Positions 20,045 to 44,790 are shown, counted from the stretch's first letter. The stretch is 60,909 nucleotides of DNA from an uncultured Gammaproteobacteria bacterium (GCA_964538435.1 CAZIDX010000008.1:1-60909); one strand, 5' to 3'. Translations and numbers: made by a program. The notes: generated by a model not told the origin, from the sequence alone.

Positions 20045-20119
20045 TGGTACACCGGGTGGGGTTCGAACCCACGGCCAAGAGATTAAGAGTCTCCTGCTCT
20101 ACCACTGAGCTACCGGTGC
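20045..20119 (-). tRNA. tRNA-Lys (anticodon CTT), CCA encoded
   Basis: Hand-folded cloverleaf. Acceptor gcaccgg/ccggtgt, D arm gctc-agtggta-gagc, anticodon arm ggaga-CTCTTAA-tctct, T arm gtggg-ttcgaac-cccac, then A-CCA. Confidence 0.85.
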
Positions 20120-20161
20120 ATAGAAAAATTGTGGATCAACGGCAATAGTATGCCAAGAATA

Positions 20162-20190
20162 TTGACAATCGTCAATATCTGCGGTAGTAT
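20162..20190 (+). promoter_or_regulatory. Promoter of tRNA-Arg
   Basis: TTGACA (20162-67), 17 nt spacer, TAGTAT (20185-90). It lies 28 nt upstream of the mature 5' end. Confidence 0.6.
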
Positions 20191-20218
20191 CTTGCTGTGA
20201 ACAAAACCTTCACCCTGT

Positions 20219-20295
20219 GCGGGTGTAGCTCAGCTGGATAGAGCGCGTGGCTTCGGACCACGAGGTCGGGGGTTCGAGTCCTCCCGCCCGCACCA
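20219..20295 (+). tRNA. tRNA-Arg (anticodon TCG), CCA encoded
   Basis: Acceptor gcgggtg/cgcccgc, D arm gctc-agctggata-gagc, anticodon arm cgtgg-CTTCGGA-ccacg, T arm ggggg-ttcgagt-cctcc, then A-CCA. Confidence 0.9.
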
Positions 20296-40252: not shown

Positions 40253-40290
40253 GCGTCCTCCTTATTCTCAGGCTATAGGGCCAGGCAAGG

Positions 40291-40319
40291 ACATTAAGCA
40301 AAACCTGGGGTTTTGTCAA
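40291..40319 (-). promoter_or_regulatory. Promoter of the 39368..40252 gene
   Basis: On the minus strand: TTGACA (40319-14), 17 nt spacer, TAATGT (40296-91). Confidence 0.55.
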
Positions 40320-40391
40320 TGTTGCAGGTAATATTTCGCTTCTTTTCATCCTAGTTTAGGCATATATGCGTCGATCGTCGCATAGGCGCCT

Positions 40392-40422
40392 AAACAGAAA
40401 AGACGGCAGCTTTCGCTAACCG
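40392..40422. repeat. 31-nt direct repeat, copy 1 (terminator-like on the minus strand)
   Basis: aaacagaaaagacggcagctttcgctaaccg is identical to 40794-40824. Read on the minus strand it is a hairpin plus ttttctgttt. Confidence 0.85.
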
Positions 40423-40448
40423 CCTCGTGTCGTTATGGGCAGCAGGAT

Positions 40449-40694
40449 CTACCAGTAGTCGCGCCTTCCGCGCGGGAAGCCGATCCGGCCGCTCTTGGAC
40501 TTGCTGCCGCCGCTCGATCTCGAGCGCTGGCTGTCACGCGCCGCGACTGCGCGCGCCGCACGGGCGACATCCGAGGTCACGAGGTAGCCCTCCGAATTCC
40601 TGACCGTACCATCGCTGTAGACCTTCAGCGGTTGGGTGTGGCCGTGTCCAGTGGGGGTGCGTACGCGCGTGGGGCAAACAGTGCGATAACCCAT
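40449..40694 (-). CDS. Small (81-aa) basic protein with Arg/Ser/Gly-rich tail
   Basis: ATG at 40694 is preceded by GGGAGGA and lies downstream of the promoter at 40762-40790. Sequence: MGYRTVCPTRVRTPTGHGHTQPLKVYSDGTVRNSEGYLV...SGRIGFPRGRRDYW. Confidence 0.4.
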   Translation of the reverse strand: MGYRTVCPTRVRTPTGHGHTQPLKVYSDGTVRNSEGYLVTSDVARAARAVAARDSQRSRSSGGSKSKSGRIGFPRGRRDYW

Positions 40695-40761
40695 CTTGGG
40701 TATCCTCCCTGGTCCTATCCTTGGACCATGTTGCGGAGACGAGGGTCTCCCAGGCTCAAGC

Positions 40762-40790
40762 ATCTTGCTTAAAAGAAGATGAAATGTCAA
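40762..40790 (-). promoter_or_regulatory. Promoter of the 40449..40694 gene
   Basis: On the minus strand: TTGACA (40790-85), 17 nt spacer, CAAGAT (40767-62). Confidence 0.5.
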
Positions 40791-40793
40791 CCC

Positions 40794-40824
40794 AAACAGA
40801 AAAGACGGCAGCTTTCGCTAACCG
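40794..40824. repeat. 31-nt direct repeat, copy 2
   Basis: Identical to 40392-40422. It lies just 3' of the 40834..41058 ORF on the minus strand. Confidence 0.85.
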
Positions 40825-40833
40825 TCCGTTGAC

Positions 40834-41058
40834 TTACGCCCGAAGCGTTACCAGACCTCTTGGCTCGAGCCAAAGCTTGGTCACGATCAGGTAGTTGAAC
40901 ACGCCCCAGGATGCACCGATCAGCGATCCGACCAGCACACCTATTGCCCCGCCGCCCATGAAGTGAACGATGCCAGCACCAATCGCTGCATCCACACTAC
41001 AGATCAGTCGTGCATCCGAGTGGATGCCCAGGAAGAGTGAGACTATGAAGACCTTCAC
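40834..41058 (-). CDS. Small hydrophobic glycine-zipper-like membrane peptide (start uncertain)
   Basis: GTG start with a weak SD. The sequence contains AAIGAGIVHFMGGGAIGVLVGSLIGASWG. It is divergent from leuS and sits behind ATTCTTGACAAAA. Confidence 0.3.
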   Translation of the reverse strand: MKVFIVSLFLGIHSDARLICSVDAAIGAGIVHFMGGGAIGVLVGSLIGASWGVFNYLIVTKLWLEPRGLVTLRA

Positions 41059-41140
41059 GAACTTCCCAGCAACCAGTCCAAGAAAAGGTGTTTTGTCAAG
41101 AATTGGCTAATCCTCACCCATTTGATACGATACGTCGCGT

Positions 41141-44100
41141 ATGAGTTACAACCACCAAGAGATTGAAAAGAAATGGCAGGATCGTTGGTTTTCAACCGAC
41201 GTCTTTCACGCCAAGAACGACTCTGATAAAGAGAAGTTTTATTGCTTGATTGAGTTCCCATACCCATCGGGGGCTGGCCTGCACGCTGGGCACCCACGAA
41301 GCTACACAGCGCTCGACGTGGTTGCGCGCAAGCAGCGTCATCTTGGCAAGAACGTTCTCTATCCAATTGGATGGGATGCGTTTGGGCTTCCAACAGAAAA
41401 CTACGCCATCAAGACCGGACGTAAGCCGCAGGATATTACAAAAGAAAATACAGACAAATTCCGTGAGCAGCTTAAGGGTCTTGGAATCTCTTTTGATTGG
41501 TCGCGCGAGATCAACACCACAGACCCGGAATACTACAAGTGGACGCAGTGGATGTTCCTTGAGTTTTTCAAAGCAGGCCTCACGTACAAATCAAATCTTG
41601 CTATCAACTGGTGTCTCTCTTGCAAGATTGGGCTTGCAAACGAAGAAGTGGTAAACGGTGCCTGTGAGCGCTGTGGTGGGGAAGTAGAAAAGCGGGACAA
41701 AGAGCAATGGATGATTGAGATCACAAAATACGCCGAGGAGCTTCTATCAGGACTCGATGAGGTCAATTATCTTGAAAAGATTAAAACGCAGCAACGCAAC
41801 TGGATCGGAAAGAGCGAAGGAGCCATGGTGGACTTCGAGGTTGCTGACCCACTGGGGCCTGTCACACCAGTGATCCGAGTGTTCACCACACGCCCAGACA
41901 CACTTTTTGGTGCAACCTACATGGTGCTCGCTCCAGAGCACGAGCTGGTTGAGCAGATTACGAGCAGTGAAAAGATGGGAGAGGTGAGCGAGTACGTCAA
42001 AGAAGCAAAAGCAAAAGCAGATATTGACCGAACGAACGACGAGAAAGAAAAAACAGGAGTCTTCACGGGTAGCTATGCAATCAACCCAGTCAATGGAGAA
42101 AAGATTCCAATCTGGGTAGCTGACTACGTAATGATGGGCTACGGAACAGGAGCCATCATGGCCGTCCCAGCCCACGACGAGAGGGACTTTGCATTTGCGA
42201 CCAAGTACGAGATCCCAATCATCAAGGTGGTTGAGCCTCCAGTGCTCCAGAACGTTATCAACCCAGACATCGGCATCGCCCACGCCATGCAGTCTGACAT
42301 CAAGATCGAACATGAATGCTACACAGGCGAAGGAAAGGCGATTAACTCTGGAGAGTTCAACGGACGTTCAACCGAAGAGTTCAAGACCGCCATCACAAAA
42401 TGGCTCGAAGAAAAAGAACTCGGAAAAGCCGCAACAAACTACAAGCTCCGAGACTGGGTCTTCTCCCGCCAGCGCTACTGGGGTGAGCCAATCCCGCTTG
42501 TGTACTGCCAGGCATGTCACAATAAGACAATTGAAAGAGATAATGTTGTAATCTTTCACGGCTGGGAAGACACATCCGAGCACACATTCATCCCAGGGCT
42601 CCGAGAAGAGCTCGAGAAAAAGAACTACAACACCCACGCCTTTGACGCTCCAAATCCAATGGAGCCGAATTTTGATGAGTGGTGGAAGTTTGCAAACGAA
42701 AAACTCGAAGGAATCAACACAGAAAACCTCGTACTCGTCGGTCACAGCATGGGTGGTGGGCTTGCGTGTAAGCTCGCAGAGAAATACAAAGTCAAAAAAC
42801 TTGTTCTTGTAGCTCCGGTTGGGTTCAAAGGTTCAGATGAGTACTTTGCTCAGTTCAAAGATGAGCTCACAGAGGATGAAATGAACACCTTTCGCTCTTA
42901 CATGGACCGAGAACTTGATATTAAAAAAGTGAAAGAGAACGTTGATGAAATCACTGTTATCTTTGGAGAGGATGACAAGTGGATCTCAAAGGAAGTTCAG
43001 GATTTCTACAAAACAAACTTTGGTGACGTGGCACAGATTGTCACCTGGCCAGGTGTAGGTCATATGGGGGGAGAAGAAGGAGCCAAGTTTGCTACAAGAA
43101 TCTCAAAGTATTTTGACACAAAAGACTTCTCAGGCTGGATCCCAGTTCCAGAAGCCGAGCTTCCTGTCACGCTCCCAGACGTAGAAAAGTACGAGCCAAC
43201 AGATTCAGGCGAGTCTCCGCTTGCAGTCATCGAGGACTGGGTGAATACAACCTGTCCTGAGTGTTCAGGGCCAGCCAAGCGAGAAACTGACACCATGCCA
43301 AACTGGGCAGGATCAAGCTGGTACTTCCTCGCCTACGCAATGAAACTCACAAACGATTTCAAATTCCCAATGAGCTCGTACGCGGATGTTCTGAAAAAAT
43401 GGATGCCTGTCGATTTCTACAACGGTGGAAACGAACACATCACACTTCACCTTCTTTACTCACGCTTTTGGAACAAGGTGATGCATGATCGTGGTCATGT
43501 GCCAGTGTCAGAGCCTTACAAGCGACGTCATGGTCACGGCCTTGTGCTTGCAGAGGATGGCACGAAGATGAGTAAGTCAAAGGGGAATGGAGTAGATCCA
43601 GATGAAGTCATTCGAGAGTACGGAGCTGATGCGCTGCGCATGTACATCATGTTCATGGGTCCATTTGAAGAACCAGCACCATTTAACATGAGCGGACTCA
43701 TCGGCGTGCGCCGCTTCCTCGACAAAGTCATGCGCTATGTTTCAGATTGGAACGAGAGTGGTGCAGAAGACCTCGGAAAGATTATCGAACCTCACATCAA
43801 AAAGGCTTCAGATGATATTGATAACTTTAGGTTTAACACAGCAGTTTCTAGTTTCATGAAGCTCTTCAACGAGCTCGGCGACAAAGCTTGCACCAAAGAT
43901 CAGCTCAAGCGGATCCTCACCGTGCTTTGCCCATTTGCTCCTCATATCGCAAACGAGTGCTGGGAAATGATCGGGGAGACAGGTCTTGTTGAAGAACAAG
44001 CTTGGCCAGAGTTTGACGAGAGTCTGCTCATCCGCGACACCATCGAAATGGGAGTCCAAGTAAACGGAAAAGTCCGTGCCAGCATCCAGCTTGCTCCAGA

Positions 44101-44227
44101 CGCAAGCGAGGAGGAAGCAAAAAAGATCGCGCTCGCAGAAGAAAATATTCAAAAACATCTTGAAGGCAAAGAGATTGTAAAGATCATCTACGTACCAGGT
44201 CGCATCCTAAACATTGTCGTGAAATAG
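41141..44227 (+). CDS. leuS: Leucyl-tRNA synthetase carrying an inserted alpha/beta-hydrolase domain
   Basis: HIGH (HAGH), KMSKS, CP1 editing domain (TRPDTLFGATYMVLAPEH) and zinc knuckles. The product is 1028 aa because of an insert of about 205 aa at residues ~460-665. Confidence 0.95.
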   Translation: MSYNHQEIEKKWQDRWFSTDVFHAKNDSDKEKFYCLIEFPYPSGAGLHAGHPRSYTALDVVARKQRHLGKNVLYPIGWDAFGLPTENYAIKTGRKPQDITKENTDKFREQLKGLGISFDWSREINTTDPEYYKWTQWMFLEFFKAGLTYKSNLAINWCLSCKIGLANEEVVNGACERCGGEVEKRDKEQWMIEITKYAEELLSGLDEVNYLEKIKTQQRNWIGKSEGAMVDFEVADPLGPVTPVIRVFTTRPDTLFGATYMVLAPEHELVEQITSSEKMGEVSEYVKEAKAKADIDRTNDEKEKTGVFTGSYAINPVNGEKIPIWVADYVMMGYGTGAIMAVPAHDERDFAFATKYEIPIIKVVEPPVLQNVINPDIGIAHAMQSDIKIEHECYTGEGKAINSGEFNGRSTEEFKTAITKWLEEKELGKAATNYKLRDWVFSRQRYWGEPIPLVYCQACHNKTIERDNVVIFHGWEDTSEHTFIPGLREELEKKNYNTHAFDAPNPMEPNFDEWWKFANEKLEGINTENLVLVGHSMGGGLACKLAEKYKVKKLVLVAPVGFKGSDEYFAQFKDELTEDEMNTFRSYMDRELDIKKVKENVDEITVIFGEDDKWISKEVQDFYKTNFGDVAQIVTWPGVGHMGGEEGAKFATRISKYFDTKDFSGWIPVPEAELPVTLPDVEKYEPTDSGESPLAVIEDWVNTTCPECSGPAKRETDTMPNWAGSSWYFLAYAMKLTNDFKFPMSSYADVLKKWMPVDFYNGGNEHITLHLLYSRFWNKVMHDRGHVPVSEPYKRRHGHGLVLAEDGTKMSKSKGNGVDPDEVIREYGADALRMYIMFMGPFEEPAPFNMSGLIGVRRFLDKVMRYVSDWNESGAEDLGKIIEPHIKKASDDIDNFRFNTAVSSFMKLFNELGDKACTKDQLKRILTVLCPFAPHIANECWEMIGETGLVEEQAWPEFDESLLIRDTIEMGVQVNGKVRASIQLAPDASEEEAKKIALAEENIQKHLEGKEIVKIIYVPGRILNIVVK

Positions 44228-44229
44228 TT

Positions 44230-44790
44230 ATGGCGCATTTACCAGAATCAGCAAAAAAGGTCTTCGACGGGATCGTCTTTGATGTCTACCAGTGGGAGCA
44301 AGAGCTCTTTGATGGCACTACAGCAACCTTTGAAATGCTCAGGCGCAACGATGGTGCAGAAGTCATTGCGGTCAAAGACGATAAGATCATGATTCAGATC
44401 CAAGAGCAGCCATACAAACCAGAATTCATATGTCTCCCAAGTGGAAACATCGAGGACGGAGAAGATGCACACACAGGAGCAGCTCGAGAACTGCTTGAAG
44501 AATCAGGTCATGTCTCAGACGACTGGGATCATTACAGCAAAAGAAACCCCTACTCAAAATACGATTGGACCATGCATGTGTTCATCGCACGCAACTGCCG
44601 CTACCAGCAAGAGCCAGAGCTTGATGGGGGAGAGAAGATCAAAGTTGAGTGGGTAACATTCGACGAACTTGTCGATCTCGTGGACTCAGGAAAGATGAAC
44701 AGAATCGAGCAAGAGCTAAGAGCACAGCTCATCCGCGCCAAGTATCACAAGCCAAGCTATGACGCGCTCAAGAAACGCATTTTCGGATAG
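44230..44790 (+). CDS. Nudix hydrolase
   Basis: Nudix box GNIEDGEDAHTGAARELLEESG. The start lies 2 nt after the leuS stop. Confidence 0.85.
   Translation: MAHLPESAKKVFDGIVFDVYQWEQELFDGTTATFEMLRRNDGAEVIAVKDDKIMIQIQEQPYKPEFICLPSGNIEDGEDAHTGAARELLEESGHVSDDWDHYSKRNPYSKYDWTMHVFIARNCRYQQEPELDGGEKIKVEWVTFDELVDLVDSGKMNRIEQELRAQLIRAKYHKPSYDALKKRIFG

Follow-up and report, generated by a model that had tools for sequence, protein, structure and literature searches.

The leuS gene examined here raises the question of why a leucyl-tRNA synthetase (LeuRS) should carry, inside one of its zinc knuckles, a segment of about 205 residues that reads like a second enzyme. The gene lies on a 60,909-nt stretch of DNA (GCA_964538435.1, CAZIDX010000008.1:1-60909), referred to below as the window, and an original prediction made from the sequence alone had proposed that residues ~460–665 constitute a complete serine hydrolase, possibly of the Ser_hydrolase/YdeN family, within a LeuRS of otherwise canonical bacterial layout. 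We consider it close to certain that the insert represents a real domain, natively expressed and forming an autonomous globular unit in a surface zinc knuckle, and that it is a hydrolase predicted to be catalytically competent through the triad Ser536-Asp612-His641. The features on which this is based, all on the plus strand and several defined by comparison with Thermus thermophilus LeuRS or with P0014, a syntenic orthologue without insert, are the following.

41141..44227, plus strand: leuS, bacterial-type LeuRS with inserted hydrolase, 1028 residues (open reading frame call, TIGR00396)
41795..42409, plus strand: CP1 editing domain, residues 219–423, intact (Pfam PF13603, 226 bits)
42506..42517, plus strand: first ZN-2 CxxC pair, C456 and C459, directly before the insert (aligns to T. 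thermophilus C439/C442)
42518..43132, plus strand: YdeN/RBBP9-family alpha/beta serine hydrolase insert, residues 460–664, 205 residues (T. thermophilus and P0014 alignments)
42557..42562, plus strand: HG oxyanion-hole motif, H473 and G474 (FHGWED, 472–477), after strand beta-1 (467–472 in the model)
42746..42748, plus strand: predicted catalytic nucleophile Ser536 (GHSMGG, 534–539), between strand 530–535 and helix 537–548
42974..42976, plus strand: predicted catalytic acid Asp612 (GEDDKW, 609–614), after strand 601–609
43061..43063, plus strand: predicted catalytic His641 (GVGHMG, 638–643), after strand 631–636
43253..43264, plus strand: second ZN-2 CxxC pair, C705 and C708, 40 residues past the insert (invariant in alignment A1, see below)
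43565..43579, plus strand: KMSKS catalytic loop; K809, M810, S811, K812, and S813 are all invariant among 49 LeuRS of the Candidate Phyla Radiation (CPR)

Taken alone, the insert matches Pfam family Ser_hydrolase (PF06821) with 45.2 bits (E = 1.2e-11, cutoff 22), as compared with 40.6 bits when scored inside the full-length LeuRS, and it also matches Abhydrolase_1 and Abhydrolase_6. A profile of 27 hydrolase modules aligns over the full length with Bacillus subtilis YdeN (E = 2e-32) and human RBBP9 (E = 5e-20). The AlphaFold2 model of the insert only, calculated with the same 27-module alignment, has a pLDDT of 95 and a pTM of 0.92 and displays the expected beta-alpha-beta order, in keeping with the independent folding for which such a model had been suggested as a check, and this fold is retained within the full-length LeuRS model. 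In a Foldseek search of the PDB, the top matches to the insert are RBBP9 (PDB codes 2QS9, 7OEX, and 9FCR; E = 1e-12) and YdeN (PDB code 1UXO), with probability 1.00 and target-normalised TM (template modelling) scores of 0.76–0.81, and Pfam, profile, and fold comparison thus all agree with the family guess made in the original prediction. In the 27-module alignment (A2), positions H14, S77, and H182 are invariant, and G15 and D153 are at least 90% conserved, while the nucleophile serine and the histidine are likewise invariant in a MAFFT alignment of 36 modules from varied hosts and at least four divergent subfamilies, in which the Asp and the HG motif are also at least 90% conserved. The claim of a complete serine hydrolase, with the HG motif and all three triad residues, is therefore upheld.

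The limits of the insert were obtained in two ways. In a phmmer comparison with the PDB, residues 2–459 align with T. thermophilus LeuRS 3–442 and residues 665–805 with 443–580, which places the insertion point exactly between C442 and G443 of that enzyme; relative to P0014 (80% identical), the indel comprises exactly residues 460–664. The proposed interruption of the zinc knuckle is accordingly found between the two ZN-2 CxxC pairs, and the range 42518–43135 given for it earlier deviates from the P0014-defined indel by no more than one codon. Less accurate was the statement that the insert has the GC content of the backbone, since its value of 0.439 falls within the lowest 1.3% of 618-nt gene windows. 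The GC content at third codon positions (GC3) is ordinary (0.476, 33rd percentile), and the dip can therefore be attributed to amino-acid composition. The module occurs once in the window, and in the syntenic locus of a relative, P0013, the insert is present as well with 74% identity. Nei–Gojobori (NG86) omega values against P0013 are 0.112 for the insert and 0.088 for the core, both approximate because dS is ~1.3–1.5, and recently acquired foreign DNA was rejected as an origin in view of the normal GC3 and an insert dS close to that of the core. Hence, the idea of a native rather than recent insert holds in so far as the composition of the segment is native and the ancestor shared with P0013 already had it, but the next most closely related syntenic orthologue lacks it and its distribution on the LeuRS tree is patchy.

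That patchiness, together with the clean absence of the insert from a close orthologue, could be taken to mean that the segment is missing from the mature functional protein, either as an excised intein-like or mobile element, as an assembly chimera, or as a decayed and non-catalytic spacer. An assembly artefact was rejected because an independent Logan contig encodes an identical LeuRS protein, a syntenic relative has the insert, and dozens of homologues carry it in frame. An intein or mobile element was rejected as well: no Hint or intein Pfam match to LeuRS or to the insert was obtained at E <= 0.1, the insert starts at His460, not with Cys or Ser, and ends in ...DFS, with Gly665 next where splicing would require Cys, Ser, or Thr, and no repeats were found at its junctions. 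A conserved triad, an omega of 0.11, and a confident fold both alone and in the full-length model argue against decay. It is thus very unlikely that the segment is an artefact or is cut out of the mature protein, and we regard this alternative, which the original prediction had itself raised, as effectively refuted.

The enzyme surrounding the insert is a bacterial-type LeuRS by the tests applied, and leucylation is predicted from its sequence. The whole protein scores 975.6 bits against TIGR00396 (leuS_bact, cutoff 548.4) and contains the Pfam domains tRNA-synt_1, the PF13603 editing domain, and Anticodon_1. Every motif quoted in support of a canonical bacterial order was recovered at its position: the class I signatures HAGH (48–51) and KMSKS (809–813) are both invariant among relatives, ZN-1 (CLSC/CERC, residues 158–178) is followed by CP1 as in the bacterial topology, and the ZN-2 pairs C456/C459 and C705/C708 correspond to C439/C442 and C484/C487 in T. 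thermophilus. Residues 436–452 form a highly conserved stretch just upstream of CQAC (456–459), GWIPVPEAELPVTLPD (residues 665–680) directly follows the insert, and CPEC (705–708) provides the second CxxC pair of ZN-2. In alignment A1, which comprises 49 related CPR LeuRS proteins, C456 is invariant and C459 at least 90% conserved, in insert-bearing and insert-less proteins alike, and the CP1 motifs TTRPDT (249–254) and AHDERD (344–349) are invariant in relatives with or without insert. The full-length AlphaFold2 model (pLDDT 86, pTM 0.76) superposes on 2BTE, 4AQ7, and 5OMW, which include the E. coli and T. thermophilus enzymes, with target-normalised TM scores of 0.81–0.85, and the host fold is therefore undisturbed by the insert. 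In the phmmer alignment, no counterpart of the leucine-specific domain at T. thermophilus ~581–624 was seen before KMSKS (window 43520–43580, LeuRS residues ~795–813), but as not every member of the family has this domain, membership is unaffected. The host is an uncultured, Uhrbacteria-like CPR bacterium, and its LeuRS is otherwise complete.

The architecture recurs outside the window. The 120 LeuRS proteins closest to that of the window all belong to CPR/Patescibacteria, with Uhrbacteria, Falkowbacteria, Magasanikbacteria, and Parcubacteria among the named groups, and PF06821 is found in 28 of them. Landmark spacing places the hydrolase at three different sites.

ZN-2: baseline spacing 34–51 residues, 217–239 with insert; hydrolase in 23 proteins including that of the window
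CP1 N-terminal edge: baseline 22–52 residues, ~204 with insert; hydrolase in P0049, P0056, P0065, and P0120
CP1 C-terminal variable loop: baseline 42–104 residues, 157–272 with insert; hydrolase in P0082 and P0114, NUDIX in 17 others

As judged from these spacings, members of the hydrolase family have been inserted independently at three LeuRS sites. They fall into at least four divergent subfamilies, A (HGWED...GHSMGG, the window type), B, C, and D; one subfamily can occupy different sites, and different subfamilies can occupy the same site. Relative to the window protein, the identities of core and insert are as follows.

P0013: core 86–93%, insert 74%
P0015: core 69–76%, insert 47%
P0132 (archaeal LeuRS): core 35–46%, insert 54%
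CPR hosts with subfamilies B, C, or D: N-terminal core ~70%, insert 24–36%

Insert identity is thus decoupled from host LeuRS identity. In a neighbour-joining tree of 793 core columns, calculated without bootstraps, insert-bearing and insert-less LeuRS are neighbours several times. The gene order leuS-NUDIX-UDP-glucose dehydrogenase-ComEC is identical in the window, the P0013 genome, and the P0014 contig, while the synthetase itself differs: in the window it contains the hydrolase only, in P0013 the hydrolase and an internal NUDIX domain, and in P0014 neither. Because the P0014 enzyme lacks exactly residues 460–664, the insert must be regarded as accessory to LeuRS function. Spread of the insert has probably occurred by recombination through the very conserved flanks, which include RETDTMPNWAGSSWYF. 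An archaeal genome, 'Euryarchaeota archaeon SM23-78', encodes a LeuRS in which the module occupies exactly this ZN-2 position, and a single-sequence scan of species-representative genomes returned three archaeal loci only.

CPR LeuRS is, more generally, an insertion hub, and some of these proteins carry two or three inserts together and reach 1344 residues. A GNAT insert is present in P0153, Ham1-like inserts in P0139 and, by eye, also in P0152, P0165, and P0190, a SAM methyltransferase in P0128 (from a precomputed Pfam list) and P0116 (by sequence), and an aminoglycoside-nucleotidyltransferase-like insert in P0078. P0074 combines a DUF559 endonuclease-like insert, REase_MTES_1575, and a further unassigned insert at ZN-2, and the inserts of P0057 and P0025 are without family assignment.

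Three loops that accept at least seven unrelated domain types suggest a simple explanation, namely that the hydrolase is a general short-chain esterase or aminopeptidase without mechanistic coupling to LeuRS, and that small CPR and DPANN genomes fuse accessory enzymes into permissive loops or termini of abundant constitutive proteins, thereby securing expression and stability. The appearance of the hydrolase at any of the three sites, the exchange of subfamilies at one site, the ability of the close orthologue P0014 to do without it, and the plain p-nitrophenyl (pNP) butyrate esterase activity of the family member ML-005 (PMC6119806) are all consistent with such piggy-backing, as is the finding that most family members are standalone proteins of ~185 residues in CPR and DPANN with varied neighbours. 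Against it, the insert and the LeuRS core are under equally strong purifying selection, and an archaeal LeuRS with a core identity of only 35–46% has this module at its ZN-2 site too. A further objection comes from the choice of fusion partners. Exhaustive phmmer searching of 1.84 billion representatives with the insert, which also recovers the LeuRS-embedded copies missed by word-indexed searches, gave 780 clusters at E <= 1e-3, of which 14 at E <= 1e-30 make up subfamily A. About 40 of the 52 multi-domain representatives inspected are LeuRS, and the others include the following fusions.

Archaeal FtsY/SRP receptor: P0137, P0142, and Woesearchaeota L004 (SRP54 domain, 234–242 bits)
Archaeal uL22: P0143 and P0002–P0004
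Archaeal eS19: P0005, P0007, and a Pacearchaeota genome (on a contig that also encodes Pelota and Hjc)
SecA wing/scaffold domain: P0211
NUDIX: P0187
Ham1: P0227
P0161, 452 residues: Ser_hydrolase, LeuRS CP1-like editing domain, and NUDIX, without synthetase body

The identified fusion hosts all function in translation or co-translational targeting, and no RNA polymerase, chaperone, ATP synthase, or metabolic enzyme serves as host among the 52 representatives. With these points on either side, we hold uncoupled piggy-backing to be unlikely, yet a serious contender. The domain combinations indicate that the hydrolase family is recurrently tethered to the translation and co-translational targeting apparatus in CPR and DPANN.

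Several members of this set deserve separate description. In P0137 and in L004 (3791–6229, Candidatus Woesearchaeota archaeon RIFOXYD1_FULL_40_14), the N-terminal region of FtsY/SRP receptor contains a subfamily-A hydrolase and His_Phos_1 ahead of the NG domain. P0138 (265 residues) consists of a hydrolase, a Lys/Glu-rich linker, and a C-terminal ...SESWEPKTKLGKEVKDGKV, probably truncated at the contig end; by eye this C-terminus resembles the N-terminus of archaeal uS5, a resemblance that Pfam did not confirm. The CP1-like domain of P0161 scores 45 bits and its T-rich motif has degenerated to VNRPEA, and the protein could be either a free-standing editing-like factor or a split-gene fragment. 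Standalone copies of ~185 residues are common in CPR and DPANN, one of them lying between rpsP and KH-trmD within the operon, one before dnaG-rpoD, and one after an MNT-HepT pair. Another, P0338, is found on more than 50 contigs and precedes a class I LysRS gene by 33 nt (L010 4001–6180), which is a second association of the family with a synthetase, by neighbourhood and not by fusion.

The proteins uL22, FtsY, and SecA function at or near the nascent-chain exit, and CPR and DPANN organisms are generally auxotrophic. Both circumstances would suit an N-terminal aminopeptidase that trims hydrophobic N-terminal residues, from nascent chains when attached to ribosomal proteins, FtsY, or SecA, and from imported peptides when attached to LeuRS, where the leucine set free would benefit an amino-acid auxotroph. 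The closest structural relative, RBBP9, is indeed a serine aminopeptidase that requires a free alpha-amine and prefers aromatic and hydrophobic residues (PMC8866121). Conversely, eS19, a small-subunit protein, lies at a distance from the exit tunnel, channelling of leucine to LeuRS is speculative, the profile lies nearer to the esterase-like YdeN than to RBBP9, and the lid region aligns too unreliably for the RBBP9 pocket residues to be matched. Taken together, this makes an aminopeptidase role improbable.

What LeuRS, ribosomes, and ribosome-docking factors have in common is the tRNA 3'-end ester, aminoacyl or peptidyl, or the related aminoacyl-adenylate, and because this also fits RBBP9/YdeN chemistry, we favour, tentatively and as a possible rather than a probable reading, an aminoacyl-ester hydrolase that is tethered to the translation machinery and depends on its host for substrate delivery. 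RBBP9 forms an acyl-enzyme on the catalytic serine with single amino acids, with a strict requirement for a free alpha-amine (PMC8866121), and valacyclovir, in which a nucleoside analogue is esterified with L-valine, is activated by the same enzyme (Shenoy et al. 2020, as cited in PMC7730578). The esterase ML-005 acts on short-chain substrates, and the lack of a hydrophobic lid in YdeN suggests water-soluble esters or thioesters as substrates (PMC6119806). By analogy, the tethered domain would hydrolyse aminoacyl ester bonds in substrates with a free alpha-amine, either the aminoacyl ester at a tRNA 3'-end or an aminoacyl-nucleotide, and would constitute an accessory deacylation or recycling site beside the intact CP1 editing site. 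RNA or substrate binding would be supplied by the host protein, the hydrolase would be dispensable for aminoacylation itself, and the module would have been repeatedly gained, lost, or swapped, probably by recombination via the conserved LeuRS flanks. A wider version, in which RBBP9/YdeN-fold hydrolases of CPR and DPANN act on the tRNA 3'-end ester of aminoacyl-, N-blocked aminoacyl-, or peptidyl-tRNA, are delivered by tethering to LeuRS, uL22, eS19, FtsY, and SecA, and have spread laterally between both lineages, appears doubtful to us. If it were true, the LeuRS hydrolase would be a third site, hydrolytic, beside the synthetic and CP1 sites, and the first tRNA deacylase or quality-control factor with an alpha/beta-hydrolase fold.

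Several observations weigh against the favoured aminoacyl-ester hydrolase. With the CP1 motifs intact in all carriers, there is no evident editing gap to fill, and replacement of a decayed CP1 editing site was rejected on the same ground. The hydrolase occupies three different LeuRS sites, and the same loops host unrelated enzymes in relatives (NUDIX, Ham1, GNAT, methyltransferase, nucleotidyltransferase, and DUF559), which suggests that these loops are permissive and not tuned to tRNA 3'-end geometry. The insert module is acidic (pI 4.9, net charge -13), as are nearly all copies, and would thus be a poor RNA binder alone. An intact CP1, an acidic module, and sites shared with unrelated enzymes together weaken a precise editing role. 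For the alpha-amine anchors of RBBP9 (Glu108, Tyr99, and Ser76), the aligned column is not conserved, but the lid region aligns unreliably because subfamily A has ~13 extra residues there. Of the four standalone copies whose gene context was examined, two have neighbourhoods without relation to translation. AlaX/tRNA_SAD, YbaK/ProX, DTD, Pth, and Pth2 are absent from the Pfam and NCBIfam matches of the insert at E <= 0.1, and without homology to these tRNA-editing and peptidyl-tRNA hydrolase families, tRNA deacylation would be a new job for this fold.

An acidic domain would suit small-molecule substrates, and a family that accepts aminoacyl groups and esters of nucleoside analogues might instead serve in sanitation or self-protection, cleaving soluble aminoacyl- or acyl-nucleotide compounds rather than tRNA, local to the target protein. 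Candidate substrates would be non-cognate aminoacyl-adenylates, antibiotics that mimic aminoacyl-adenylates (compare MccF), and acyl esters of nucleotides or cofactors, and the hydrolase would work jointly with neighbouring NUDIX, Ham1, GNAT, nucleotidyltransferase, and phosphatase domains. Such partners do share a polypeptide with the hydrolase: NUDIX in P0187 and many LeuRS, Ham1 in P0227 and P0139, His_Phos_1 in the FtsY fusions P0137 and L004, GNAT in P0153, and the aminoglycoside-nucleotidyltransferase-like domain in P0078. A patchy pattern of gain and loss is what accessory functions in defence or detoxification typically show, NCBIfam NF040702 describes an IleRS with a GNAT domain, and at the present locus a NUDIX gene always directly follows leuS (window, P0013, and P0014). 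Set against this, sanitation by itself does not explain tethering to uL22, eS19, FtsY, and SecA, neither the window nor the related loci examined showed genes for an inhibitor, immunity, or biosynthesis in the vicinity, and the case is built entirely on domain co-occurrence. We therefore judge sanitation unlikely as the function of the insert, though a close rival of the favoured reading. The adjacent gene is the following.

44230..44790, plus strand: NUDIX hydrolase gene, 186 residues, 2 nt after the leuS stop codon (PF00293)

Counterparts are present in the two closest relatives (L015 6944–7504 and L016 2727–3287), and the link between this gene and the hydrolase insert is one of association only. 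The gene was rejected as a detached version of the LeuRS-internal NUDIX domain, with which it shares the NUDIX box only, and P0013 has both. LeuRS and NUDIX are thus associated in two independent ways, through the adjacent gene and through the non-orthologous inserts in the CP1 loop.

Some further features of the window lie outside this argument. The gap upstream of leuS, ~890 nt (40253–41140), is long for a compact genome and has a GC content of 0.61–0.63 at 40350–40800; a structured RNA in this GC-rich gap was considered and rejected, since no Rfam match was found and the fold z-scores of -2.9 and -2.4 are modest. It contains, on the minus strand, an open reading frame of 113 residues rich in Arg, Gly, and Ser (40449–40790), which is followed by a terminator-like hairpin (40424–40405) and could represent a genuine small gene. 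Detected RNA genes are limited, for the whole window, to a divergent pair at 20045–20295, in which tRNA-Lys(CUU) (minus strand) and tRNA-Arg(UCG) (plus strand) are separated by 100 nt.

The belief that no such fusion had been known needs to be divided. Some carriers bear the JGI automatic label 'leucyl-tRNA synthetase/predicted alpha/beta hydrolase family esterase', while NCBI names for some are 'alpha/beta fold hydrolase' or 'hypothetical protein', and the architecture, present in 28 of 120 LeuRS and partly machine-annotated in databases, is therefore not a unique discovery of the window. The refuting condition named in the original prediction, an insert that is widespread and annotated before, thus applies in part. 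In a full-text literature search, on the other hand, no paper was found on an alpha/beta hydrolase nested in LeuRS or on its wider tethering, and both the architecture and the tethering pattern appear unstudied. Few enzymes have been studied as thoroughly as the aminoacyl-tRNA synthetases, in which accessory domains often point to roles in fidelity or to moonlighting. Occupation of three LeuRS sites, subfamily swaps, and fusions to uL22, eS19, FtsY, and SecA form, taken together, a Rosetta-stone signal that points to an uncharacterised translation-linked activity in two large radiations of ultra-small symbionts, CPR and DPANN, which are known for their unusual translation systems, and they offer a clue to the physiology of the YdeN/RBBP9 family, which is poorly understood. 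Should the hydrolase prove to be only a passenger, CPR LeuRS would still be a remarkable example of how defined loops tolerate insertion of many domains.

MccF-type serine peptidases protect an aminoacyl-tRNA synthetase by cleaving aminoacyl-adenylate mimics. MccF belongs to family S66 and is not fused to a synthetase; it provides a model for sanitation, and no sequence relationship between MccF and the insert was detected. As for the insert, human RBBP9 has a minimal alpha/beta fold of ~190 residues, a GxSxG elbow, and a Ser-Asp-His triad, and belongs to PF06821, but it is a free-standing eukaryotic protein with 20–22% identity, and its lid does not share the ~13-residue extra segment of subfamily A. 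YdeN (PDB code 1UXO) is the closest relative by sequence profile, with a target-normalised TM score of 0.81, and ML-005 cleaves short-chain pNP esters (PMC6119806). Unlike the insert, both are standalone proteins, ML-005 being secreted, with no known physiological substrate or link to translation. A precedent for a class Ia synthetase with an unrelated small-molecule enzyme domain is offered by the IleRS proteins of NCBIfam NF040702, in which the extra domain is an N-acetyltransferase (GNAT) instead of an alpha/beta hydrolase. A further comparison is with LeuRS itself, where CP1 is a hydrolytic domain placed within the Rossmann fold that cleaves an aminoacyl ester, and its post-transfer editing is the analogy behind the favoured aminoacyl-ester hydrolase. 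The two domains differ in that CP1 has an unrelated fold without a Ser-His-Asp triad and is universal and essential for fidelity, whereas the insert is optional and patchily distributed.

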